Position numbers and translations under genes: made by a program. Positions 1 to 10,528 of a stretch of 10,528 nucleotides of DNA are shown piece by piece. Positions within the stretch are counted from its first letter, which is position 1. Each line of letters starts with the position of its first letter. Under the pieces are notes generated by a model. That model ran no database searches. It had not been told where the DNA came from and was given only the letters and a program-made list of their open reading frames with translations. The stretch spans positions 1-10,528 of the IMG/VR virus record IMGVR_UViG_2565956629_000002, one strand, 5' to 3'. The DNA comes from a virus. Its lineage: Duplodnaviria > Heunggongvirae > Uroviricota > Caudoviricetes.

Positions 1-63
1 ATTGAGTGGGAATGATTAATAGCTAACTCATAGCAAATCATTTCTATTCAGACACTAACTCAA

Positions 64-94
64 CCCTCTGTTTTTACAGAGGGTTTTTGTTTTT
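64..94 (+). terminator. Rho-independent terminator of an upstream (off-window) plus-strand transcript
   Basis: Stem CCCTCTG (64-70), loop TTTTTA, stem CAGAGGG (77-83), followed by TTTTTGTTTTT. The reverse strand has no T-tract after the hairpin, so it looks unidirectional. Confidence 0.5.
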
Positions 95-143
95 ATGTAT
101 TCATTTCTATTCACTCTACACCATATTTTTCGGCGGTACAGGT

Positions 144-178
144 GACGGTATTACCTTAAAGGTATACTCTCATACCGT
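144..178. promoter_or_regulatory. Nested inverted repeats upstream of int, including an operator-like TTACC-N5-GGTAt site (151-165)
   Basis: GACGGTAT (144-151) and ATACCGTC (171-178) form a perfect 8-bp inverted repeat. Inside it, TTACCttaaaGGTAt matches the operator motif found in the immunity region with one mismatch. Sits about 30 bp upstream of the int start. Confidence 0.3.
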
Positions 179-207
179 CATGAAAATGGTTTCTATACGG
201 GTGAATT

Positions 208-1458
208 GTGCTTACCGATACAAAATTAAAAAACCTCAAGCCGCAGGACAAACTGTACAAGGTCTCCGATCGTGACGGGCTGTATGTAGCTGTGCTTACG
301 TCAGGCACGGTCTCGTTTCGCTACGACTACCGTATCAACGGTCGCCGCGAAACGCTGGTAATCGGGCAGTATGGGCGTGACGGTATCAGCCTGGCAGAAG
401 CGCGAGAAGAACTGATTGCTGCAAAGAAGCTGCTTAAAGCAGGCCAGTCACCGGCTGCGGCTAAACGTGACGGTATCAAAAAGATTCGTGGTGCCGAGAC
501 GTTTGCGGTACATACCGACAGTTATATGAAACACGTCATCCTGGCTGACAGTACCCGCGCAATGAAACAGGCGGTGATCGACCGTGACATACTTCCGGTT
601 CTTGGCAATAAAATGATGGCTGAAATTACCACATCGATGGTTCGTGATTTGTGTGACCGGATTGTCGAACGCGGTGGCCGGGCAACAGCAGTGCAGGCCA
701 GGGAGATCATCAGTAGCGTATACCGTCACGCCAATGACCGTGGTCATGGTTTGTTTAATCCTGCGGCTGACATTAAACCTTCGTCTATCGCCATATTTAA
801 ACCAAGAGAGCGAACACTGACACCAGAAGAAATTGGCCTGTTCTTCCGCACGCTGGATGCCATTGGTGCTATGGGCACTATGAAAATGGCTTTAAAGCTG
901 GTGCTTATCACTATGGTTCGTAAAGGCGAATTCACCAACGCAACGTGGGATGAAATAGATTTTAAAAAATGGACATGGACCATTCCTTCAGACCGCATGA
1001 AGGGAAGCCGGGCGCACGTTATTTACCTGCCTAAACAGGCTCAGGATATATTGGTCGGATTGCAGATGTGCGCTGGTGGAAGTGAATATCTGGTTCCTGG
1101 TCGTTACAATTTCCGGAAGCCATTATCTAATGCCGCGCTGAACTCTCTGATCGACAGAACGGTGAAAATAATAAATGAAGATGGTGAGCATATTCAGGGC
1201 TTCACCGTACACGATATGCGCCGTACAGCCAGTACATTGTTGCATGAGGCTGGTTATCCTTCAGACTGGATTGAAAAGGCTCTGGCACATGAGCAGAAAG
1301 GTGTGCGCGCCGTATATAACAAAGCGGAATACGCCAGACAGCGCGCCTACATGTTGCAGCAGTGGGCCGATATGATTGATTCCTGGATTGACGGGGAGCA
1401 TACGGATCTGATTCCGTTCTCCCCGTCGAAGTTTGAGAAGTGGATGGCGGGGGAATAA
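208..1458 (+). CDS. int: Tyrosine site-specific integrase (P4-like phage integrase family)
   Basis: 416-aa ORF with a GTG start at 208. N-terminus MLTDTKLKNLKP...DGLYV...FRYDYRINGRRE is typical of the P4-type integrase arm-binding domain. C-terminal catalytic signature includes HDMRRT (H-x-x-R) and VRAVYNKAEY (catalytic Tyr), plus the conserved WADMID tail. Confidence 0.93.
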   Translation: MLTDTKLKNLKPQDKLYKVSDRDGLYVAVLTSGTVSFRYDYRINGRRETLVIGQYGRDGISLAEAREELIAAKKLLKAGQSPAAAKRDGIKKIRGAETFAVHTDSYMKHVILADSTRAMKQAVIDRDILPVLGNKMMAEITTSMVRDLCDRIVERGGRATAVQAREIISSVYRHANDRGHGLFNPAADIKPSSIAIFKPRERTLTPEEIGLFFRTLDAIGAMGTMKMALKLVLITMVRKGEFTNATWDEIDFKKWTWTIPSDRMKGSRAHVIYLPKQAQDILVGLQMCAGGSEYLVPGRYNFRKPLSNAALNSLIDRTVKIINEDGEHIQGFTVHDMRRTASTLLHEAGYPSDWIEKALAHEQKGVRAVYNKAEYARQRAYMLQQWADMIDSWIDGEHTDLIPFSPSKFEKWMAGE

Positions 1459-1461
1459 CGT

Positions 1462-1656
1462 TTAATTATTCTGCTGATTTTCTTCCATCTCGGCTTCTGC
1501 TGCCAGTGATTCAATTTTATCTGTGAATATTGCTGACAGTGTTGCAAATTCAGCATCAGTGACAGCGGGAATTGGAACAAACCTGATCCCGCTGTGTGCA
1601 AGCATGTTTGCAGTTTCAAGGCATTTCCTTAAATCTGCTGGTGATGCCCTGTTCAT
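1462..1656 (-). CDS. Small hypothetical protein (64 aa) with acidic C-terminal tail, last gene of the cargo cassette
   Basis: ATG at 1656-1654 overlaps the methyltransferase stop (ATGA overlap). GGGAG lies 8 nt upstream. Protein MNRASPADLRKCLETANMLAHSG...AEAEMEENQQNN. The longer 104-aa track ORF (start 1776) would overlap the MTase out of frame and is disfavoured. Stop is 3 nt from the int stop. Confidence 0.4.
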   Translation of the reverse strand: MNRASPADLRKCLETANMLAHSGIRFVPIPAVTDAEFATLSAIFTDKIESLAAEAEMEENQQNN

Positions 1657-2300
1657 GCTGCACGCTCCCGCCCCTGGTTGTCTGTTGGTGACAGCGGAGC
1701 ATTGCTGAATGCATTTGTTAATCCGGCAATATACAACGCGTATCCAGGGTGTAGTTGCACTGCTGGGTCTTCGCACTGATTACCCCAAACATCGAAGCCA
1801 TGAGACGTTTGGCGGGCGAACAGTTCAATGCGAGAAACATCGCCTAACAATTGCACAAGTTTTTCACGAACGACATCTGGTTTTCTTGAATGCTCAAGCC
1901 GCGGTGCGGTAAATGACTGAACGATACCTGCATTAATGCGCGGAGGTAGTTTTCCCTTTACCGCAAACAGGCAATCTTCACTGTTGGCGCGAGTCATGTG
2001 TCCCATCCCCATAACCAGTTTATCTGGTTGTCGACTACCACATTTTATCCACGTGAAGCCCTTCATGGTCATCAGACGAAATCCCCAGGCTTCAACAACT
2101 TTTAGTGCTTCGAGTGGTTGTGTTGGCACCCACCACATGGCCAACAGACAGTTTTCATCGGCCAAATCCCACACAGGAAGGCGGCAGATATCCAGCACAC
2201 TCATAACCGGATATTTAAAACCGGCACCGCGATTACCATCTGCGGCTTTGTCCCGGTATACCCAGGGTGGATCTGCATAGATTAGCGTGTATTTTTTCAT
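1653..2300 (-). CDS. MT-A70 family N6-adenine DNA methyltransferase (215 aa)
   Basis: Start ATG at 2300 (internal Met of the track ORF) with GGGAG 7 nt upstream. MKKYTLIYADPPWVY carries the DPPW catalytic motif close to the N-terminus, as in MT-A70-type enzymes. ELFARQTSHGFDVWGNQ near the C-terminus is also typical. Start overlaps the stop of the upstream DndB-like gene (ATGA). Confidence 0.85.
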   Translation of the reverse strand: MKKYTLIYADPPWVYRDKAADGNRGAGFKYPVMSVLDICRLPVWDLADENCLLAMWWVPTQPLEALKVVEAWGFRLMTMKGFTWIKCGSRQPDKLVMGMGHMTRANSEDCLFAVKGKLPPRINAGIVQSFTAPRLEHSRKPDVVREKLVQLLGDVSRIELFARQTSHGFDVWGNQCEDPAVQLHPGYALYIAGLTNAFSNAPLSPTDNQGRERAA

Positions 2301-3364
2301 TGTTCTGCTCCCAGACTTCCTTTGGTAAAGGCTTGTATCAGCCTGTTTGCTGCCGCTTTCTGTGCTGCTACATTGGCAATAACTGATAGTTTTTCCTGGC
2401 TTGCTTTCGTGCAGATCCCAACCCAATTATCCATTAGGAAAAAATTCTCTCTTTCTGCGAAGTCAGTATTTGCACATAATGTTTCAATCATTGAAATTAT
2501 TTCTTTTATTGAGTGATTAACCATCATTTGCTGAACAGCATAGCCAAAAGCGTTAATCATCACTGCATGAAACTGGATATATTCTCTTTTGTATTCTGAT
2601 TGCTTTGTACCATGGCGAATTGCTTCTAGTTGTGTAAGACATAACCATGATTCCCATACTGACTCGATGTTACCAATTTCTAGTTTTTTCCCATTATGAA
2701 TACAAAATTTTGATGTTGAATCACTTAATGCTTTGAAACTCACCCACATGTTTGACTTTGACGGAACAACGTTGTGCTCGAAGTCAGTGACTTCTGCAAA
2801 AGTGTCATGTTGCGACAGGAAAGACACCATTTCTTGGGCAACATCGTTTCGTCCGTCATACGCCATATTAATTGCTGCAGATGGTTTTGAAACATTATTA
2901 TTAATGTCAGAAAAGAACTGCTGACGCGCCTTCAAAGGAAGGTTATGCGTAAGCATAAGAGGAATCATAATTGTTTCGCCATAATTACGGCAGAACTCAG
3001 CTAATCCTGCAGCACGATGCTGTCCATCAAATAATTTTATTTCTGCATCCATAGGAAATCTAGCTAAACCGACATTAGTATTTCCAATCTCATGGAACTC
3101 TATTTCTGAGTTACAATTTCCGACCAATGGTGGAACAATAAATGGTTCCTTTTTCTCGTAAGCGTTGACTAAATATTGATAAAACTTTTTTACCCTGGTT
3201 GGATTAATTTCACGTTGAGAACGTTCAAGGGTACTTCCCGTATTGTCGGTTGCCAATACTCTCGATAGTGCTCTTGCTGGTACTGTCATCATAAGTATTA
3301 CAGTGCTTCCCTGCGTTCCTCGTGATGCGGGAAATTCAAAGAAATAATCGCCTACCTTGCTCAT
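2297..3364 (-). CDS. DndB-like DGQHR-domain protein (ParB/Srx-fold, DNA-modification-associated family)
   Basis: Contains the name-giving motif LFDGQHRAAGL and an N-terminal YFFEFPASRGTQG segment as in DndB/DGQHR proteins. Start placed at ATG 3364 (MSKVGDYFF, AGG about 7 nt upstream). An in-frame ATG at 3400 would add 12 N/Q-rich residues and is the alternative. Gene is visibly more AT-rich than its neighbours. Confidence 0.82.
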   Translation of the reverse strand: MSKVGDYFFEFPASRGTQGSTVILMMTVPARALSRVLATDNTGSTLERSQREINPTRVKKFYQYLVNAYEKKEPFIVPPLVGNCNSEIEFHEIGNTNVGLARFPMDAEIKLFDGQHRAAGLAEFCRNYGETIMIPLMLTHNLPLKARQQFFSDINNNVSKPSAAINMAYDGRNDVAQEMVSFLSQHDTFAEVTDFEHNVVPSKSNMWVSFKALSDSTSKFCIHNGKKLEIGNIESVWESWLCLTQLEAIRHGTKQSEYKREYIQFHAVMINAFGYAVQQMMVNHSIKEIISMIETLCANTDFAERENFFLMDNWVGICTKASQEKLSVIANVAAQKAAANRLIQAFTKGSLGAEQ

Positions 3365-3392
3365 GATATTACCTTTTACATTATTGTTTTGA

Positions 3393-3692
3393 TTATTCAT
3401 AAACCACCCCGCAACATCCTATGCCGCTATAGTCGCCACGGCGAAGGCCGTTACCTTTTGTGATACATTGGTCCCTGCGAACCGCGATCCTTGCACGTTC
3501 AACATCACCAGAAGCAACATCCATACACTGAAGCCAAAGGTGAGCGGCAATGCGGAATTGCCCTTTTTTCTCTCTTTCAATCGCGCGTTTTTCGATCTCT
3601 ATCGCCGCAGGAGTAACGGCGACAATCTTTGACGGACTGCGCATTGAAACCTTATTCATGTGATATTTTTCAAGTCGGCTTAACTTTCTCAC
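3393..3692 (-). CDS. Hypothetical small protein, possible first gene of the cargo cassette
   Basis: Only long ORF on either strand in this 300-bp segment. GTG start at 3692 with GAGGG about 9 nt upstream; alternative internal ATG starts at 3659 and 3644. Stop TAA at 3393-3395 lies within the ATGAATAA context of the 3400 alternative start. No recognisable domain. Confidence 0.4.
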   Translation of the reverse strand: MRKLSRLEKYHMNKVSMRSPSKIVAVTPAAIEIEKRAIEREKKGQFRIAAHLWLQCMDVASGDVERARIAVRRDQCITKGNGLRRGDYSGIGCCGVVYE

Positions 3693-3801
3693 TTAATCCA
3701 ACCCTCTCTGAAAATTAATGCCAGCAGATAAAGCCATGCTGAAACAGAGGCCAGGAATAAGTACCATCCTGACCATTTGCTCCAGTGCCTTAGCAGCACA
3801 C

Positions 3802-4050
3802 TCATGCAGCGTTGCTCACAGGACGATATACACGTTGCTGAACAGGAGGCTTTTTACCCTGGAACTCTGCCGGGCTTGCTGCCTGACGTTCATCAAGCCA
3901 ACGCTCAACTTCGTCACGGTTCCATGCGCAGCGTTTGTCAGTGATATACCAGCGTTTAGGAAATTCACCTGCGCGCTCCATACGGTCGATAGTGCTCCAT
4001 GACAGTGGCACCACCGCCAGGAGTTCCTTCTTACCTAATGCACCTTTCAT
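3802..4050 (-). CDS. AlpA/Xis-family excisionase-like DNA-binding protein
   Basis: 82-aa protein with LLAVVPLSWSTIDRMERAGEFPKRWYITDKRCAWNRDEVERWL, the typical MerR-like winged-helix signature of AlpA-type prophage excisionases/regulators. RBS GAGAGGT 5-6 nt upstream of the ATG. Confidence 0.85.
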   Translation of the reverse strand: MKGALGKKELLAVVPLSWSTIDRMERAGEFPKRWYITDKRCAWNRDEVERWLDERQAASPAEFQGKKPPVQQRVYRPVSNAA

Positions 4051-4072
4051 AAATACCTCTCTTGGTTGCAGT

Positions 4073-4091
4073 GCGGCGCGCGTGGCGCCGC
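4073..4091. repeat. GC-rich perfect palindrome (7-bp stem, 5-nt loop) between recT and the excisionase gene
   Basis: GCGGCGC gcgtg GCGCCGC. No T-tract follows on either strand, so it is not a canonical intrinsic terminator. Confidence 0.4.
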
Positions 4092-4099
4092 GGTGGTGG

Positions 4100-5017
4100 T
4101 TACATAGATGTTTCGTTTAATTCTTCCCGACGAACGCTGTAAACGTCGGTGGCTTTTGCCAGCAGTTCGTCATCATCTGAAAGTTTTTGTGCAATGTATT
4201 TGTAAGCCTTATCCAGTTCGGAGACAGTGCTGTAATTCATCGCTGCGCTGGTAAAGGCCATCAGCATTTCTTCTGGATCACGGCTATCCGCTTTACGCGT
4301 TTGCTCATCAGGCTTTTTCACTGTTTTAGCGTTGATCAGACTGTTCATGCTGGATGCTGTGCCGTGCTTTGCCTGACTTCTTGGAGTTACGTCACGTTCA
4401 ATAATGTCAGGTGAGTCGATATATTTACCTTCCATTTCCTCAGCTGTGGCTTGTTGACCAATCTCCGGCCATGCTTTACGTAATGCCTGTGCCTCTGCGC
4501 ATTTTGCCAACTGCGCATAAGGGCGCTTTTTCCACATGGCATTTGGTGCCGATGTGTCACGCCCCCCAGTTGCATAGTTCTCAATCCAGTATTCTTTGGC
4601 GCTAAACTCTACGATTTCCCCGCTTGCCATTCGCTTGCTGACGGTGTACTTACACCACTGAGGGAAGGTAACCTCCACGCCTGAAAGCGTTTGTGTTACA
4701 TCTGGACCGAACTCAGGTTCATTAGCGCCTGCGTAATCGCCGGAACGGTAGGCCTGAATGCGATAAAGTCCAATGCCAGGCATGACCACGTCGCGCCATT
4801 CATTCTTTCCACTCTTCGAGTCTTTAACACTCATTGGTACCAGGTGTACCGGCTTAAGAAGAGGATCGAGTTGACGCGCCCGGCAGTAATCGACTGCCAT
4901 CATTACCGATTCATCTTTTGCCCCAGGGTAAATACTGTTTTTCAGAGCGCTCCATGTAACTTCATCGATTCCCCGAATAGCCAACACATCATTGGTGATT
5001 GCAATTTCGTTGCTCAT
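4100..5017 (-). CDS. recT: RecT-family single-strand annealing recombinase
   Basis: Start ATG at 5017 (internal Met of the track ORF; AGGA 9 nt upstream) overlapping the exonuclease stop (ATGA). A GTG at 5044 is the alternative. SKSGKNEWRDVVMPGIGLYRIQAYRSGDYAG resembles the conserved RecT core as recalled from Rac RecT. Confidence 0.88.
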   Translation of the reverse strand: MSNEIAITNDVLAIRGIDEVTWSALKNSIYPGAKDESVMMAVDYCRARQLDPLLKPVHLVPMSVKDSKSGKNEWRDVVMPGIGLYRIQAYRSGDYAGANEPEFGPDVTQTLSGVEVTFPQWCKYTVSKRMASGEIVEFSAKEYWIENYATGGRDTSAPNAMWKKRPYAQLAKCAEAQALRKAWPEIGQQATAEEMEGKYIDSPDIIERDVTPRSQAKHGTASSMNSLINAKTVKKPDEQTRKADSRDPEEMLMAFTSAAMNYSTVSELDKAYKYIAQKLSDDDELLAKATDVYSVRREELNETSM

Positions 5018-5835
5018 ACGTACATATCCTGTTTGCGTGCCCACTCAGGGCGTTTAATAATTTCCACGCCGCCCCATTCATCGCTGATGCGGCATTCGTG
5101 ATAGGTATTCAGATCCCGGCGGAACAGAGCGTGCCCGGCATCGACATCCGGCGCATCCAGCCCGAACACGCGTACCGGATACCGACCACAATCAATGCTT
5201 TCGCTCACGGCAAGAAAGAAAAAACCATGCGGCTGACCAGTAATCCTCATTGCGCCTTCGCGGTACATTGCGTCCTGCACGTGGTAGCGGAATTCCTCGA
5301 TGTGACGTGCAAAACGGTCCATATCTGCAACCTTTTTCACGTCGACGATCACGTTGTGCTCGTTCAGCCATTTGTCTGGACGAATTCGGCACAACTCACC
5401 CGTCTCTTCATCGTTCCAGTACATTGATGCTTCGCAGTAACCAGGTGCTTCCAGCATCCAGCGTGCCGCCGGGTGAGCCATTGCGCTATCACGCATCAGC
5501 TCCAGTTTCCGCCACTGCTCGGCATCAAGTACCGTAATCCCCATATCCGCTACATCACGAAGAAATGCTTCTTCGTCAGCTTTACCTTGTTTCGTCCGAC
5601 GATCGAACTTCGGTGAAACAATGAAGCGTTTGTCGAATTCTCCAGGCTCCAGAAGCAGACAGTGCAATGCGGTTCCCATATCCAGTGCAGACTTTTTCTC
5701 TTCGTCTTCTGGTGCTGCCTGAACCCATTTAAGAAGCGCCGGATTCTTGGCAACCATGTCCAGTTGCGACTTACTCACGCCGTCACCGGCGTGGTAGTCT
5801 TCGTTGCTGATGTCGAAATAAATTCCCGGTTTCAT
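5014..5835 (-). CDS. RecE-like PD-(D/E)XK exonuclease (exodeoxyribonuclease VIII-like), partner of RecT
   Basis: 273-aa ORF immediately upstream of and translationally coupled to RecT. Sequence features recall the C-terminal nuclease domain of prophage RecE-type exonucleases. ATG at 5835 overlaps the upstream gene stop (ATGA). Confidence 0.8.
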   Translation of the reverse strand: MKPGIYFDISNEDYHAGDGVSKSQLDMVAKNPALLKWVQAAPEDEEKKSALDMGTALHCLLLEPGEFDKRFIVSPKFDRRTKQGKADEEAFLRDVADMGITVLDAEQWRKLELMRDSAMAHPAARWMLEAPGYCEASMYWNDEETGELCRIRPDKWLNEHNVIVDVKKVADMDRFARHIEEFRYHVQDAMYREGAMRITGQPHGFFFLAVSESIDCGRYPVRVFGLDAPDVDAGHALFRRDLNTYHECRISDEWGGVEIIKRPEWARKQDMYV

Positions 5836-6131
5836 GCCGCTTCCCTCTGCCCATCAAGCTGATCCGCCAGATCCCAGCGCGCTATAATTGCCATTGCCTC
5901 GCGCCGGTAGGAATCCATCAGTTCTTCGAACTCAGGGCTGTCTTTAGCAGCCTCCAGCACTTCCTGACGAACGCCTTTGCCTGTTACAACGTCGAAAGTT
6001 GAGGACAGTTGATGAAGTCGGATGCTCTCAATCAGTTCAACTTGTCGGTCATATAGCTGTTCTGACAGGCGGTAGTCCTTGTCGAATGCCAGCATGATTT
6101 TTTGAAGATTTTTCTGCTGATTAACGTTCAT
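5832..6131 (-). CDS. Hypothetical early-left-operon protein (99 aa)
   Basis: Start ATG at 6131 with strong GGAGG 7 nt upstream (an ATG at 6146 is less likely). Stop overlaps the exonuclease start. No recognised domain; occupies a position analogous to gam/abc-type genes in lambdoid phages. Confidence 0.7.
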   Translation of the reverse strand: MNVNQQKNLQKIMLAFDKDYRLSEQLYDRQVELIESIRLHQLSSTFDVVTGKGVRQEVLEAAKDSPEFEELMDSYRREAMAIIARWDLADQLDGQREAA

Positions 6132-6133
6132 TA

Positions 6134-6286
6134 TCAGCCCTCCCATATCTCGTTATCGTTGGCCACATCGCGAGCTTCTTTGCTGACGAAAGCCCACTTA
6201 ATGCCTTCCTGTAAGGTGCGGAACTTCCAGCTCATGAATCCGCATGCAGTAACGCAGTACCAACCGTTGATGATTTTCCACTGCAT
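6134..6286 (-). CDS. Small W/C-rich hypothetical protein (50 aa), first gene after the pL-like promoter
   Basis: Not in the supplied track (under 60 aa). ATG at 6286 with GAGGT 8 nt upstream. Hand translation: MQWKIINGWYCVTACGFMSWKFRTLQEGIKWAFVSKEARDVANDNEIWEG. Stop TGA at 6134-6136 is followed after 2 nt by the next gene's ATG. Confidence 0.5.
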   Translation of the reverse strand: MQWKIINGWYCVTACGFMSWKFRTLQEGIKWAFVSKEARDVANDNEIWEG

Positions 6287-6305
6287 AACTTGTTACCTCG
6301 GTCTG

Positions 6306-6382
6306 TTACCGTTGAGGTAATAATTATGCGTATTTGGTTTGATGTCAATAGATATGAGTTAAAAAAATTACCCATAAGGTAA
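6306..6382. promoter_or_regulatory. OL-like operator pair: two perfect TTACC-N5-GGTAA palindromes flanking the pL-like promoter
   Basis: TTACCgttgaGGTAA (6306-6320) and TTACCcataaGGTAA (6368-6382), 62 bp centre to centre. Confidence 0.6.
6320..6348 (-). promoter_or_regulatory. pL-like early leftward promoter
   Basis: On the minus strand: TTGACA (complement of 6343-6348), 17-nt spacer, AATTAT abutting the 6306-6320 operator. The second operator lies 19 bp upstream of the -35. Confidence 0.45.
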
Positions 6383-6393
6383 TCTTGTTGGCA

Positions 6394-6418
6394 ATAAAAA
6401 AGCCGCCATGAGGCGGCT
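6394..6418 (-). terminator. Rho-independent terminator downstream of the repressor gene
   Basis: Stem AGCCGCC (6401-6407), loop ATGA, stem GGCGGCT (6412-6418). On the minus strand the hairpin is followed by TTTTTTAT (plus-strand A-tract 6394-6400). Confidence 0.65.
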
Positions 6419-6439
6419 TACTTACTGAAAACTATAGTT

Positions 6440-7024
6440 TTATTGTTTGCTTCTTTCGTTCTGGCTGATGACAAATTCAATGTAACTTTCGATCTTTGCC
6501 TTCTCTGTTTCGGGTAACAATGCGTAGCGCGAGCGGTCATAGTTGATAGTCGCAGGGTCGTGCGGGTGAATCAGTAATTCATAGCCGTGACGCCCGAATG
6601 CGGATGCAACATTCTCCAGGGTGGAAATGGAAACGCTGACTTCATTGTTTAACAGGCGGCTGATTGTCACCTGGGCGACGCCGGATGCGCGGTGTAGTTT
6701 TCCCTGCGTTGAAAGGTCGCGGCTTTCGCTCATCCAGCGTTCCAGGTTGTGAGCCGCCAGCTGACCAATGTCGCTTGGGCCGACAGGCTGAAACCCCTCC
6801 TGAGAAAGCGAGCGATCGATATCAAGCCAGTTACGGGGTTTATTGGCGGCAGCTTCAATTTTTCGCGCAACCTGGTCGCCGATAACCTTCTTGCCAAGAG
6901 CCCAGCGGTTTACCAGATTTGCCTGAGTTCCAAGTTTTTCTGCCATCCGCGTCTGAACACCATTGAATTCACGGTCGATCAAGTCGTTGAGATTTTGCCT
7001 GCGGACGTCCTGGATACTTTTCAT
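6440..7024 (-). CDS. Prophage repressor-like protein with two HTH domains and no S24 peptidase domain
   Basis: 194 aa, transcribed divergently from the cro-like gene across an operator-rich region. Two HTH-like segments (QTRMAEKLGTQANLVNRWALGKK and LHRASGVAQVTISRLLNNEVSVS). No LexA-type Ala-Gly cleavage site or Ser/Lys peptidase module recognisable. Confidence 0.8.
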   Translation of the reverse strand: MKSIQDVRRQNLNDLIDREFNGVQTRMAEKLGTQANLVNRWALGKKVIGDQVARKIEAAANKPRNWLDIDRSLSQEGFQPVGPSDIGQLAAHNLERWMSESRDLSTQGKLHRASGVAQVTISRLLNNEVSVSISTLENVASAFGRHGYELLIHPHDPATINYDRSRYALLPETEKAKIESYIEFVISQNERSKQ

Positions 7025-7079
7025 TTTCTGGAAAATCGCCTCATATATGAATCAGTAGATGATTCAATTTAAAGCAATA

Positions 7080-7142
7080 TTACCCAACAGGTAAATGCAC
7101 CTCATAGGTAACTATCCTTGATTTTTGTTACCTTATGGGTGA
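7080..7142. promoter_or_regulatory. OR-like operator cluster between the repressor and cro-like genes
   Basis: TTACCcaacaGGTAA (7080-7094, perfect), gcACCtcataGGTAA (7097-7111, degenerate), TTACCttatgGGTgA (7128-7142, one mismatch). Confidence 0.6.
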
Positions 7143-7153
7143 ATATTTATTAT
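7125..7153 (+). promoter_or_regulatory. pR-like promoter for the cro-like gene
   Basis: TTGTTA (7125-7130), 17-nt spacer, TATTAT (7148-7153). The 7128-7142 operator overlaps the -35 and spacer. Confidence 0.35.
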
Positions 7154-7178
7154 CTGAAATAAATATCAGGCAATAGCT

Positions 7179-7409
7179 ATGAGCGATAACGGACATTTCG
7201 ATTTCAAAAAGCACTGGCTTGCACTTACTCCGGATGAGCGTGAAGCCTTCGCACAGGAAGCCGGAACGACGAGTCACTATATCCAGACTCACTTAACAGG
7301 TAAGCGCAAAATGCCAGGTAAAGTATTGATGAATGGGCTTTTTAAAGCCTGTAAAACAAGACAATGGCTGCGCTCAAAAGCAGAACTGGCATACTTCTTC
7401 TACTCATGA
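7179..7409 (+). CDS. Cro-like small HTH regulator (76 aa)
   Basis: Divergent from the repressor, immediately right of the OR-like operators. HTH-like segment REAFAQEAGTTSHYIQTHLTGKRKM. Followed by a terminator. Confidence 0.75.
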   Translation: MSDNGHFDFKKHWLALTPDEREAFAQEAGTTSHYIQTHLTGKRKMPGKVLMNGLFKACKTRQWLRSKAELAYFFYS

Positions 7410-7431
7410 TATCCAGCTACAACCCTCTGTA

Positions 7432-7453
7432 GACCGCCACCCGGCGGTCTTTT
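7432..7453 (+). terminator. tR1-like rho-independent terminator after the cro-like gene
   Basis: Stem GACCGCC (7432-7438), loop ACCC, stem GGCGGTC (7443-7449), then TTTT (short T-tract). Confidence 0.5.
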
Positions 7454-7557
7454 CATATCTATTCGTACCTCAAAGGTAATAAAAAACCAAATCTGGTTGA
7501 TCAAATTTTCCAATTGTGCAAAATATCCAATATCAATAACAAAAAGAGGCGGAAAAA

Positions 7558-7770
7558 TTGAAGATAGTAACCAGAATGGAGGCCGCAAAAGCCGGGTTAA
7601 ATCGCTATTTCACAGGAAAGCGGTGCCGTCACGGCCATCTCTCTGAAAGGTATGTTCTGAACGGAACATGTGTTGAATGTGCAATGAATAGCGCCAACCG
7701 CCATCGTAATGAATTTGCTTGTGCACTAAAGAGTGCAAGAGGGGAAACCTATGGCAAGCAGCTGGATTAA
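7558..7770 (+). CDS. Small zinc-finger-like protein at the CII position
   Basis: KRCRHGHLSERYVLNGTCVECA has a Cys/His cluster (C-x-H-x-H ... C-x-x-C). TTG start at 7558 with GAGG 8 nt upstream; the first ATG is at 7576 without an obvious SD. 3' end overlaps the next gene. Confidence 0.6.
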   Translation: MKIVTRMEAAKAGLNRYFTGKRCRHGHLSERYVLNGTCVECAMNSANRHRNEFACALKSARGETYGKQLD

Positions 7771-8575
7771 GGTTGAAGTTATCACTCCTGATAAACCTGA
7801 AATTTTTCAGATAGCAGAAATTCTGGGTATTGATCCAGATGCTGTTCTTGGAAAGCTGGTTCGTATATGGGCATGGGCTGACCAGCAAACAATAGACGGT
7901 AACGCTGGCAGCGTTACAAAAGGAGTACTTGATAGACTCGCTTTTATTACAGGATTTGCTGACGCCCTCATTAGCGTCGGATGGCTTGCTTATCATGACG
8001 GCAAACTAATTCTTCCAAACTTTGAGCGACACAATGGAGAATCATCGAAAAAACGTGCACTTACGAATAGAAGAGTGGCAGAGCATCGAAAACGAGTAAC
8101 GCAAAAAGTAACGCCAACAGCGTTACAAAAGGAGTTACCAGAGGAAGAGGAAGATATATATAAAACCCCACACATAGCGCACGTGCGCGAGGGTGCTCCG
8201 ACCAGTGAAGCGAACGGTATGCCGTTGCAGGTGGCTGAACCTGAATTTCTGGATGGCCTGAGTGAACCCATCGGGAAATTTCCGATGACCGATGGCTGGC
8301 ATCCGTCGCCGGATTTTCGACGGCGTGCTGCGCTGTGGGGAACGGCCCTGCCGGAACCGGAATTTACACCTGCTGAACTTGCTGCATTCCGGGATTACTG
8401 GATGGCTGAGGGCAAAGTGTTCACGCAGGTTCAGTGGGAACAAAAATTCGCCAGGCACGTAAATCATATCAGGGGAAAATCAAAAAACGCCGGGAAAAGC
8501 GATGAGCTTGACTGGAATAACACTGACTGGATAGAAGGGGTGTGGGATGAAATCAACTCCAGAACTTCTCAATGA
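7751..8575 (+). CDS. Replication initiator (O-analogue; DUF1376/YdaU-like N-terminus with DnaT-like C-terminus)
   Basis: ATG at 7751 with GAGGGG 8 nt upstream. N-terminus MASSWIKVEV...LGKLVRIWAWADQQ and C-terminus PMTDGWHPSPDF...FRDYWMAEGK recall the prophage replication-initiation family found upstream of P/DnaC-like loaders. Contains internal iteron-like repeats. Confidence 0.75.
   Translation: MASSWIKVEVITPDKPEIFQIAEILGIDPDAVLGKLVRIWAWADQQTIDGNAGSVTKGVLDRLAFITGFADALISVGWLAYHDGKLILPNFERHNGESSKKRALTNRRVAEHRKRVTQKVTPTALQKELPEEEEDIYKTPHIAHVREGAPTSEANGMPLQVAEPEFLDGLSEPIGKFPMTDGWHPSPDFRRRAALWGTALPEPEFTPAELAAFRDYWMAEGKVFTQVQWEQKFARHVNHIRGKSKNAGKSDELDWNNTDWIEGVWDEINSRTSQ
8096..8168. repeat. Iteron-like repeats plus AT-rich tract inside the initiator gene: candidate replication origin
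   Basis: GTAACGC at 8096-8102 and 8108-8114, inverted GCGTTAC at 8120-8126, at a 12-bp period. Followed by GAGGAAGAGGAAG and the AT-rich tract GATATATATAAAA (8156-8168). A similar GTAACGC-N5-GCGTTAC palindrome sits at 7907-7925. Confidence 0.4.
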
Positions 8576-9323
8576 GTACGATCGCTTACGTGAGCATGGT
8601 GTTGCTGTGCATGAAGAGCGGCGTGACAGCAATGGCAAAAAGGAGCATGTCGCTAGAATTTTCAATGAACTATTTGTCCAGTTACAGGCTGCATTTCCCG
8701 CAAGCGTTTCGACCATAAGGGAGCAGAACAAACTTAATGAATTCCGTAAGCAATGGATGCTTGCGTTTCTGGAGAATGGGATCACTACAATGGAACAGGT
8801 TAACGCTGGTATGCGCCACGCCCGCGCCAGTGAGTCTCCGTTCTGGCCGTCGCCAGGGCAATTCATCAAGTGGTGTAAAGACAGCAAGATGGTTCTTGGC
8901 GTCACCATTGACGATGTGATGGCAGAGTTTCACCGGTACAGCAAGGAAAAAAGTTTATATCCTGGTGGTCCCGAAAGATTCCCGTGGCGGCACCCGGTTA
9001 TGTACTGGGTCGTATGTGATACCCGCCGTGCAATGTATCAGCGCCAGCTTAGCGAGATTGAGGTTGAGAAACACGCGCGCAGGCTGCTCGATGATTGGGC
9101 GAAAAAGGTGGCTTCAGGACAGCAGATACCCGATCCGGTGATCAGCATACAGGCAAAGCCAGAACCCATGAGTACGCCTCCGGACACAGGGAGAGACGTT
9201 TACCATCCACCAGGGCGAAGTTTCGGGTGCATGCCTAACGCCGCCACCCTTGGGGGAATAACACCGGCGCAGTGGCTGATGGAGGAATACAGGCGGGGAA
9301 AGGCGGCAGGATTTATCAAGTAA
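8547..9323 (+). CDS. Lambda P-like replication protein (DnaB helicase loader)
   Basis: The stretch QLQAAFPAS...EQNKLNEFRKQWMLAFLENGITTMEQVNAGMRHARAS...PFWPSPGQFIKWC closely parallels the conserved core of lambda P as recalled (FPAS, QW.LAF.ENGITTMEQVNAGMR, PSPGQF..WC). Confidence 0.88.
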   Translation: MKSTPELLNEYDRLREHGVAVHEERRDSNGKKEHVARIFNELFVQLQAAFPASVSTIREQNKLNEFRKQWMLAFLENGITTMEQVNAGMRHARASESPFWPSPGQFIKWCKDSKMVLGVTIDDVMAEFHRYSKEKSLYPGGPERFPWRHPVMYWVVCDTRRAMYQRQLSEIEVEKHARRLLDDWAKKVASGQQIPDPVISIQAKPEPMSTPPDTGRDVYHPPGRSFGCMPNAATLGGITPAQWLMEEYRRGKAAGFIK

Positions 9324-9360
9324 TACCAGCGCGATAGCGCATTTTTTTACGTCTCGATAA

Positions 9361-9437
9361 TTACCTGTGAGGTAATAAAATATTCTAAACTCTATTGATT
9401 TCGTGTCTTATGTGGTTTTTAATTACCTCAGGGGTAA
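9361..9437. promoter_or_regulatory. Third operator pair (O3) flanking a promoter downstream of the replication genes
   Basis: TTACCtgtgaGGTAA (9361-9375) and TTACCtcaggGGTAA (9423-9437), both perfect, 62 bp centre to centre: the same spacing as the OL pair. Confidence 0.55.
9395..9423 (+). promoter_or_regulatory. Candidate repressor-controlled rightward promoter (P3)
   Basis: TTGATT (9395-9400), 17-nt spacer, TTTAAT (9418-9423) abutting the downstream operator. The upstream operator ends 19 bp before the -35, the same geometry as the pL-like promoter. Confidence 0.45.
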
Positions 9438-9440
9438 ATT

Positions 9441-9785
9441 ATGAGAAAACAGATACAGGCTCTTGGTCGACTCAAAACAGGCCAGATGAACAAAACAGAA
9501 TCTGCGTATTGCCAGCACCTTGAGCTGCGTAAACGTGCAGGGGAAATCGCCTGGTATCGATTTGAGGGTATCAAGCTGCGATTAGCTGACAACACGTTCT
9601 ATACGCCCGATTTTGCTGTGATGCTCGCCACCGGCGAGATGGAACTGCACGAAGTGAAAGGTTTCTGGACCGACGACGCCAGGGTGAAAACCAAAGTCGC
9701 CGCAGATCAGTATCCGTTCCGAATCATCGGGGTAACGGTTAAACCAAAGAAAGCAGGTGGTGGCTGGAACATCGAAGAGTTCTGA
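9441..9785 (+). CDS. DUF1064-like phage protein (possible PD-(D/E)XK-type nuclease fold)
   Basis: 114-aa ORF with GGGG about 8 nt upstream. YTPDFAV...EMELHEVKG resembles a D...E.K nuclease-type motif. Family name is from recollection, not a search. Confidence 0.75.
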   Translation: MRKQIQALGRLKTGQMNKTESAYCQHLELRKRAGEIAWYRFEGIKLRLADNTFYTPDFAVMLATGEMELHEVKGFWTDDARVKTKVAADQYPFRIIGVTVKPKKAGGGWNIEEF

Positions 9786-9846
9786 ATCGACGATCTTTTT
9801 AGTTATCAATGTAATCAATAAGTTATGTGGATAAGCGAGGGTAAAG

Positions 9847-10284
9847 ATGGAAAGTAATATCAAAGGGTTAGTTGCCGCCGGGCATGAGATGGCTTCGGAA
9901 CTGAAAGCAGAATGTGGTGCCGTTGATATGCGCAGTGTGGCAAAGCTGATCAGCTATTTGGCAACGCAACTGGAAGTGCAACTGGTGCGTGCTAATGCGC
10001 TGGCTGCGGAGAATGCGCTGGCTCGTAAAGCAGTTCAGGCATTTTGCGATGTTGTTGGCGACAGCACCGAGGTTATCTGCGAGGAGATTGGGCGAGATGG
10101 CGTTCTGGTTATTTTGGAGGCAATGAAGGCAACAGGAAATATGCCAGCCACCGATGCTTTCCTGTCTGAAGTGCGGGCGCAGGGGGTAGAGATGATGCGC
10201 GAACATCCATCAATCAAACTTTGTTCTTTGACGCACATATGTGATGAGTTAGCCGCCCAGCTTCGCAAAGGAGGCAGCCAGTGA
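9847..10284 (+). CDS. Hypothetical phage protein (145 aa)
   Basis: Clean ORF with GAGGGTAAAG RBS 5' of the ATG. Alanine-rich, helical-looking. Stop overlaps the next gene's GTG start (GTGA). Confidence 0.7.
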   Translation: MESNIKGLVAAGHEMASELKAECGAVDMRSVAKLISYLATQLEVQLVRANALAAENALARKAVQAFCDVVGDSTEVICEEIGRDGVLVILEAMKATGNMPATDAFLSEVRAQGVEMMREHPSIKLCSLTHICDELAAQLRKGGSQ

Positions 10285-10528
10285 GCGAAATTAATTACCA
10301 GGCATTGCGTGAGGCGGCAGAGAAAGCAACGTGGGGAGACTGGGACTCATATAAACCACACCGTGGCGCACGTGGTTATGAGGTCCGACTAAGTAGTCAG
10401 GCCATTGCGCAACACGTTCTGAAAAACAACGCTGAATTTATTGCTGCCTTTAATCCAAAGGTTGCTTTGGCACTACTGGATGAACGGGAAAAAAACCAGC
10501 AATACATCAAACTCCGCGACCAGGAGAA
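10281..10528 (+). CDS. Ea22-like family protein, 5' partial (continues beyond window end)
   Basis: GTG start at 10281 with GGAGG 6 nt upstream. Hand translation VSEINYQALREAAEKATWGDWD...ALALLDEREKNQQYIKLRDQE matches the N-terminal signature of enterobacterial prophage Ea22-like proteins as recalled. No stop codon before the window ends. Confidence 0.6.
   Translation, partial: MSEINYQALREAAEKATWGDWDSYKPHRGARGYEVRLSSQAIAQHVLKNNAEFIAAFNPKVALALLDEREKNQQYIKLRDQE

Follow-up and report, generated by a model that had tools for sequence, protein, structure and literature searches.

We examined the replication initiator gene of a tailed phage (Caudoviricetes; IMG/VR record IMGVR_UViG_2565956629_000002, positions 1 to 10,528) and a set of heptamer repeats within it that may form an origin of replication. 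The whole stretch of 10,528 nucleotides (nt) is referred to here as the window, and positions are counted along it. Temperate Escherichia coli phages of the TL-2011b/vB_EcoP_ZX5 type are 98% identical to the window across 7400-9400. Its early region carries an integrase, recombination genes, a two-helix-turn-helix (HTH) repressor (6440-7024), small early genes, the initiator gene, and a gene of the lambda P family. An initial annotation made from the sequence alone had recognized a replication initiator gene and a P-like protein, and had proposed a lambda-style origin inside the former. Both gene assignments are borne out: the initiator product matches phrog_2509 ‘replication initiation protein’ (2.6e-127) and has a DnaT domain match at amino acids (aa) 177-247, and the product of 8547-9323 belongs to the lambda P family (Pfam PF06992, 1.7e-55). 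The genes, domains, and sequence elements are as follows.

7751-8575, plus strand: replication initiator gene, encoding 274 aa.

Within its product: winged-helix-like N-terminal domain (N-domain), aa ~10-118; disordered linker, ~120-170; DnaT-type single-stranded DNA-binding C-terminal domain (C-domain), ~176-250.

8547-9323, plus strand: lambda-P-family helicase-loader gene, overlapping the end of the initiator gene.

7899-7917, no strand assigned: cluster 1, the palindrome GTAACGC-TGGCA-GCGTTAC, with heptamers at 7899-7905 (plus) and 7911-7917 (minus).

8039-8062, no strand assigned: A-tract stretch GAATCATCGAAAAAACGTGCACTTACG, codons 97-104, containing an A6 tract and lying between the clusters.

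8096-8138, no strand assigned: cluster 2, GTAACGC at 8096 (plus) and 8108 (plus), GCGTTAC at 8120 (minus), and GaGTTAC at 8132 (minus), on a strict lattice of 12 base pairs (bp).

8140-8154, plus strand: 15-nt polypurine run AGAGGAAGAGGAAGA, beginning one base past the last heptamer; candidate part of an unwinding element.

8153-8165, no strand assigned: short AT tract GATATATATAAAA, 13 bp.

The heptamer GTAACGC and its complement total six occurrences in the window where 0.95 would be expected, a count that none of 200 shuffles reached. Five of the six exact copies fall in the initiator gene (7899, 8096, and 8108 on the plus strand; 7911 and 8120 on the minus strand), the sixth is a lone copy at 6249 outside it, and the window count placed none in the immunity-region operators. 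All four heptamer pairs in the window that are phased by 11 or 12 bp lie inside the initiator gene (shuffle mean 0.13), and no heptamer cluster precedes the initiator ATG in the window itself. The three heptamers at a 12-bp period that the initial annotation had reported at 8096-8126 are exact at 8096, 8108, and 8120, and a one-mismatch fourth, GAGTTAC at 8132 on the minus strand, extends the lattice. The palindromic pair reported with them also exists, although at 7899-7917 and not 7907-7925, a displacement of 8 nt; it does lie in the initiator gene, but it codes for the structured N-domain and does not adjoin the AT tract.

Cluster 1 encodes G50-N-A-G-S-V-T56, a loop of the N-domain. Cluster 2, at +346..+388 of the gene, is a nested imperfect palindrome of 43 bp (order + + - -) encoded in the disordered linker (V116..L129). 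The two share a direct repeat of 28 nt, GTAACGCnnnnnGCGTTACAAAAGGAGT, at 7899-7926 and 8108-8135 (25/28 identical, 209 bp apart), for which chance predicts no occurrence; it takes in both palindromes and, at cluster 1, runs on to 7926. A consensus scan calls the cluster-2 palindrome with its A-rich spacer (8108-8126, minus strand) terminator-like in the antisense direction (GTAACGCTGTTGGCGTTAC TTTTTGCG). Such minus-strand calls in the initiator gene are probably a side effect, being merely palindromes beside A-rich spacers. A promoter scan gave no signal above chance within the gene.

Repeats inside a coding sequence might reflect chance or coding constraint, whether a repeated peptide or codon bias, and cluster 1 does coincide with a conserved peptide, GNAGSVT. 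The shuffled counts argue against chance, and the two 28-nt copies are read in different codon phases, beginning at codon position 2 at 7899 (GNAGSVTKGV) and at position 1 at 8108 (VTPTALQKEL); the repeat is therefore not a protein repeat. We also aligned the codons of 39 non-redundant genes and scored normalized synonymous codon entropy. Codons 1-115, with the sites left aside, have an entropy of 0.75 and saturated synonymous sites, Thr12 and Pro13 using all four codons. Entropy is 0.14 over cluster 1 (codons 50-56, p=4e-5; GGT 38/39, AAC 38/38, AGC 35/35, GTT 38/39) and 0.09 over cluster 2 (codons 116-130, p=2e-8; TTA 38/38, CCA 39/39). Four-fold and six-fold degenerate codons are fixed solely at the sites, and neighboring codons use all synonyms. 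Where residue 51 is replaced, by D, C, or Y, it follows the DNA word. Such low entropy at the sites between saturated flanks rules out coding constraint and recent exchange, and together with the two-frame reading it effectively refutes an origin of the repeats in chance or coding, to which we give almost no credence. Judged by codon usage, the heptamers are under strong DNA-level selection, independent of the protein code. A weaker entropy dip falls on the A-tract stretch between the clusters (Leu104 CTT 33/33, Lys101 AAA 34/34 among the same 39 homologues), which is possibly a bend or an accessory site.

The arrangement recurs throughout the family. We obtained 92 distinct genes from 80 loci each of IMG/VR and metagenomes, with several single contigs added; essentially all have words at +149/+161(/+173) and +346..+427. 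Successive exact words are spaced by 12 bp in 169 cases, 11 bp in 30, 22-24 bp in 52, and 33-34 bp in 19. Each cluster holds 0 to 6 exact words, gained or lost in 12-nt (4-codon) steps, and the cluster-2 words are divided between frame 0 (109) and frame 1 (121). The hosts range in GC content from 0.37 to 0.64 and include Planctomycetes and Betaproteobacteria. Words at these same gene positions occur in enterobacterial phages, a prophage in the Planctomycetes chromosome CP036432, a circular element of Pusillimonas, and marine, freshwater, and gut metagenomes. We considered the 209-bp separation of the clusters in the window, equal to 20 helical turns, as a possible signal and dismissed it: spacing in the family is 198-231 bp, not strictly kept, and is set by protein length anyway.

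Among nearer relatives, similarity is confined to the 5' part of the gene in Enterobacter phage BUCT554 (83% nt identity), a Klebsiella phage (79%), and the ‘ydaU’ gene of Rac-442/2 (67%), and it stops at about 8154-8169, at or just past the AT tract. All three keep both arms of both palindromes exact, with variable 5-nt spacers. The Rac-442/2 type has two additions, a 12-nt half-site preceding site 1 and, shortly before the ATG, a third palindrome; its cluster 2 is read in the other frame (GNAASVT), the frame being restored by an 11-nt insertion.

The AlphaFold2 (AF2) model of the initiator has a confident N-domain at aa ~10-118, built from helices, one of them long and basic (97-118), and a beta-hairpin wing at 80-87; a disordered linker at 120-170, where the predicted local distance difference test score (pLDDT) is below 50; and a confident C-domain. 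Structure matches to the N-domain are weak and of the winged-helix type, including the N-terminal domain of DnaD and plasmid Rep, and neither Pfam on aa 1-135 (E up to 10) nor NCBIfam gave a family for it. Cluster 2, the polypurine run, and the AT tract all fall within the codons of the disordered linker in this model. The C-domain is DnaT-like in fold, but we rejected full identity with DnaT: NF002770 scores 93.6 bits against an equivalog cut-off of 201, and only aa 169-250 match. Because the match to DnaT is confined to the C-terminal domain, the name ‘primosomal protein I’ in related phage records is a domain-level transfer.

Across the family, the type of C-domain goes with the gene that follows. 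A DnaT-type C-domain is succeeded by a P-like gene in 36/36 cases, and a Rac-type C-domain by a DnaC/YdaV-like gene (14) or a gene with no BLAST match (18), never by a P-like one. Phage phiV10 (NC_007804; Uetakevirus) resembles the window in genome context, DnaT-like C-domain (46% identity over 83 aa), P-like loader, and array position. Unlike the window, however, its N-domain is an unrelated HTH_36 and its mid-gene array consists of six unrelated lambda-like iterons of ~18 nt (..ATCCCAAAAACGGGAT..), as though N-domain and sites had been cleanly exchanged together. The arrays of phiV10, at 3631-3853 and 3785-3820, comprise these six iterons and then three tandem 12-mers AACCAGTCATAT; both are unannotated in the record. 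Because N-domain and DNA sites are constant while the C-domain varies, and are swapped together in phiV10, they behave in these comparisons as one exchangeable unit, with the C-domain tracking the loader type, as expected if the N-domain reads the sites.

This bears on the idea that the sites are bound by another host or phage factor, or are conserved recombination junctions between mosaic modules. The homology breakpoints of BUCT554 and the Klebsiella phage just past the array, and the presence of the same word in phages of very different hosts, would suit such a role. Yet the only gene always beside the sites is the N-domain itself, the neighboring genes differ, and site variants are common to both clusters within a genome. 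Cluster 1 sits in the middle of a domain and not at a junction, and the saturated synonymous sites around the words indicate that their conservation is not recent exchange. We therefore regard another binder or a junction as distinctly improbable.

The word itself varies in some lineages. Loci L094-L097 have GTGACGC..GCGTCAC in both clusters; L099 and L154 have words of the GTTGCGC/GCGCAAC type in both clusters, as does L128 in cluster 2; and L090 has the asymmetric GTGACGC..GCGTAAC in both. Codon 51 is overlapped by site 1, and so the otherwise invariant Asn51 becomes Asp, Cys, or Tyr exactly with the change of DNA word. The word appears to dictate this residue, whose loop is modeled with lower confidence. 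Two positions alone emerged from a search of the N-domain for residues co-varying with the heptamer variants. One is N51, where the overlapping DNA leaves no choice; the other is Val109 of the long basic helix. Each of the 12 lineages with heptamers departing from GTAACGC has Met or Thr there (V109M/T), a difference that may mark a contact for specificity or just a clade.

These variants also speak to whether the inverted heptamers act as nucleic-acid structure, be it a cruciform, a single-strand hairpin such as a primosome-assembly or ssi signal, or a hairpin in the mRNA. Single-strand folding is favorable for both palindromes (-8 to -8.8 kcal/mol, z -3.6 to -4.8), the GTGACGC/GCGTCAC arm changes stay complementary, and the C-domain resembles DnaT, itself a primosome component. 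L090, however, holds the same non-complementary GTGACGC..GCGTAAC in both clusters, and many copies are unpaired and direct (+ + + - or - - -) on the strict 11-12-bp lattice. Moreover, the sites stay with the N-domain while the DnaT-like C-domain is replaceable, and an Rfam scan of 7000-9000 (E up to 1) gave no match. A structural role seems to us improbable.

Beyond cluster 2 the gene is least stable. The 30-mer 8135-8165 is the weakest duplex of the initiator gene and ranks in the bottom 1.6% of the window for stability, every weaker stretch listed being outside this gene, and 8140-8154 is one of just two homopurine/homopyrimidine runs of at least 14 nt in the window. A polypurine run of at least 10 nt occurs at this point in 88 of the 92 distinct homologues, usually right after a final ..GCGTTACC. 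Its commonest form in relatives is AGAGAAGAGAAGAGAAGAGAAGAG followed by TA-rich bases, and a TATAAATA/TAATA-type sequence comes after the run in most of them. In enteric phages the form is (GAGGAA)n + TATAAATA, translated EEEEEDI, and elsewhere the run is translated EKRREEK. As the purine-only DNA is kept while the charge of the peptide changes, the acidic linker pointed out in the initial annotation, although acidic here, is a by-product of the DNA feature. The AT-rich tract placed beside it is present, but at 8153-8165 and not 8156-8168 (3 nt off) and only 13 bp long. As an AT-rich unwinding element beside iterons, then, the locus offers the gene's least stable 30-mer and a conserved polypurine run, yet an AT tract of just 13 bp; downstream of the sites it is the polypurine run, (GAAGAG)n/(GAGGAA)n, that is conserved, and not a high AT content in itself. 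Just right of the AT tract, at 8177-8188, lies a perfect 12-bp palindrome, GCGCACGTGCGC, that neither BUCT554 nor the Klebsiella phage preserves.

The likeness to lambda proposed at the outset holds on every point that sequence can test: position within the gene, selection on the DNA, and linkage to the N-domain. Lambda has four iterons at +349..+433 of O and then a purine-rich AT tract (..AAAAGAAAAAAGAAAAGATTATT..). As at ori-lambda in lambda and the Shiga toxin (Stx) phages P27/933W, dyad-symmetric repeats lie mid-initiator gene in an inter-domain linker, with a purine-rich tract of low stability on the same side and a P-type loader as the next gene. Unlike ori-lambda, with its four to six lambdoid iterons of 18-19 bp, the window uses a 7-bp word in mixed orientation on an 11-12-bp lattice. 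The family has two or three clusters separated by ~200 bp, and the presumed binder's own coding sequence contains one of these; where ori-lambda has a long AT-rich region there is a (GAAGAG)n polypurine run with a short AT stretch, and the C-domain is DnaT-like. Whereas lambdoid iterons differ between specificity types, the heptamer is nearly invariant across phyla. Homology of the N-domain to lambda O (Phage_rep_O) was rejected, as aa 1-135 have no Pfam match and aligning the family profile to lambda O with hhalign yields a probability of 0.2. The lambda origin lies mid-O, and in Stx phages additional iterons lengthen O without affecting its DNA binding (PMC7466680); here, likewise, changes in iteron number add or remove initiator residues, in 12-nt steps.

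The sites exist far above chance, are conserved as DNA whatever the frame, always accompany the N-domain, and occupy a linker position equivalent to that in lambda. From this we infer the identity of the binder, unwinding, and origin activity: the heptamer arrays are probably iterons of the initiator N-domain and, with the polypurine/AT tract, form a lambda-style in-gene origin belonging to a separate initiator family. The initiator would bind GTAACGC words, dimers occupying the inverted pairs and neighboring molecules lining up along the 11-12-bp lattice. A nucleoprotein complex would build on cluster 2, possibly looped to cluster 1 ~200 bp upstream, and in some lineages a third cluster just before the ATG could join it. 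Strain would then open the adjoining low-stability polypurine/AT tract, and the DnaT-type C-domain may hold the single strand, recruit the P-like loader with host DnaB, or both.

The initiator might instead bind the heptamers purely for control, through autorepression, a transcription roadblock, or looping or handcuffing for copy control, with the true origin elsewhere. At least two words occur within 80 nt upstream of the ATG in 14/90 genes, forming an extra palindrome 20-55 nt from the ATG, an operator-like place. The clusters are split by ~200 bp, as in plasmid control iterons, and cluster 1 is far from the low-stability tract. The window, however, has no such upstream cluster. Cluster 2 always abuts the conserved polypurine/low-stability tract, and its position in the gene is that of the ori-lambda and phiV10 iterons. 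We noticed no further repeat array in reading the loci, although no systematic search was made. Control alone, the strongest rival to an in-gene origin, is in our estimate unlikely, and control and origin roles are not mutually exclusive.

Several observations nonetheless weigh against an in-gene origin bound by the N-domain. Cluster 1 lies ~200 bp from the putative unwinding site, within the code of a structured domain, has no counterpart in ori-lambda, and could be regulatory; the clusters before the ATG suit autoregulation as well as they suit an origin. The AT tract is short, GC-rich relatives are polypurine and not AT-rich at this point, and an unwinding role for the tract is drawn by analogy. 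The symmetric GTGAC/GTCAC arm changes would fit a hairpin too. Finally, the variant lineages may form a single clade, which leaves the evidence for coevolution of site and binder thin and suggestive only.

If the proposed origin is real, TL-2011b/ZX5-type prophages of pathogenic E. coli gain a concrete origin open to testing, as does a large uncharacterized initiator family (phrog_2509/9474) that reaches from enterobacteria to Planctomycetes and marine phages. We found no annotated origin in the related phage records opened and, in the literature searched, no paper describing this origin or initiator family. GTAACGC words on a 12-bp lattice, ending in GCGTTACC + polypurine run, would serve as a signature for origin annotation. 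The gene is also a very clean case of a DNA signal overprinted on coding sequence, with one word fixed in two reading frames and one copy dictating a residue in its own presumed binder. A constant N-domain with its sites, joined to a C-domain that tracks the loader, would extend the logic of lambda O/P to an unrelated fold. A bolder reading, which we hold to be possible though doubtful, is a phylum-spanning replicon family defined by the word lattice and by non-AT unwinding at (GAAGAG)n, with sites coupled to their binder and clusters that loop to fire or throttle initiation. The (GAAGAG)n run might open through a triplex or strand asymmetry, and with a site inside the binder's own coding sequence a change of specificity would force an amino-acid change (N51 to D, C, or Y).

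Iteron plasmids such as pPS10, RK2, F, and P1 offer a second comparison. Their winged-helix Rep proteins bind repeats beside an unwinding element, and distant extra clusters of sites give control by looping or handcuffing. The window resembles them in its winged-helix-like initiator, repeated sites, and distant extra cluster. It differs in being a phage module with a separate helicase loader and in having 7-mers, not direct repeats of 17-22 bp. Assignment to the iteron-plasmid Rep initiators (Rep_3/RepA-type) was rejected, since there is no match to the Rep_3 or RepC families. In repABC plasmids the oriV lies inside the initiator gene repC (PMC4980987, PMC3155836), and in this respect, too, the proposed origin is similar. 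A plasmid search for the initiator returned only two records, both phage-like circular elements, and no clean evidence for a minimal replicon. The 41-kilobase circular ‘plasmid’ NC_015459 of Pusillimonas sp. T7-7 (locus L173) has the initiator at 2390-3163, with heptamers and (GAAGAG)n, beside a DnaC-like ATPase; it also carries the phage genes CII, NinB, and Rha and is probably a phage or phage-plasmid.

The K-12 Rac prophage has its oriJ/YdaU in the same slot of a lambdoid-type early operon, where the DnaC-like YdaV comes next. Identity of the initiator with K-12 YdaU (DUF1376) was rejected: BLASTP gives an E of 0.95, hhalign a probability of 0.1, and the K-12 locus is without GTAACGC palindromes. 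As K-12 YdaU is non-homologous and siteless, the oriJ literature is not transferable to the window initiator family. By contrast, the ‘ydaU’ at 1228-2016 of MN652886, ‘Escherichia phage Rac’ (host E. coli 442/2; L005), belongs to this family and has three GTAACGC palindromes. The shared name thus hides a module replacement between that gene and the unrelated ydaU of K-12 MG1655 (L007, 3620-4477).

Directly upstream of the initiator gene, and overlapping its start, lies a Cys-rich open reading frame (ORF) of 64 aa at 7576-7770 (…CRHGH…CVEC…; phrog_1081, unknown function). Farther upstream, a terminator-like hairpin at 7431-7450, AGACCGCC-ACCC-GGCGGTCT + T-run, stands 3' of the ORF at 7179-7409, and the phiV10 record annotates a rho-independent terminator at the equivalent place. 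By analogy with that record, the hairpin suggests that the early operon upstream of the replication genes is under antitermination control.

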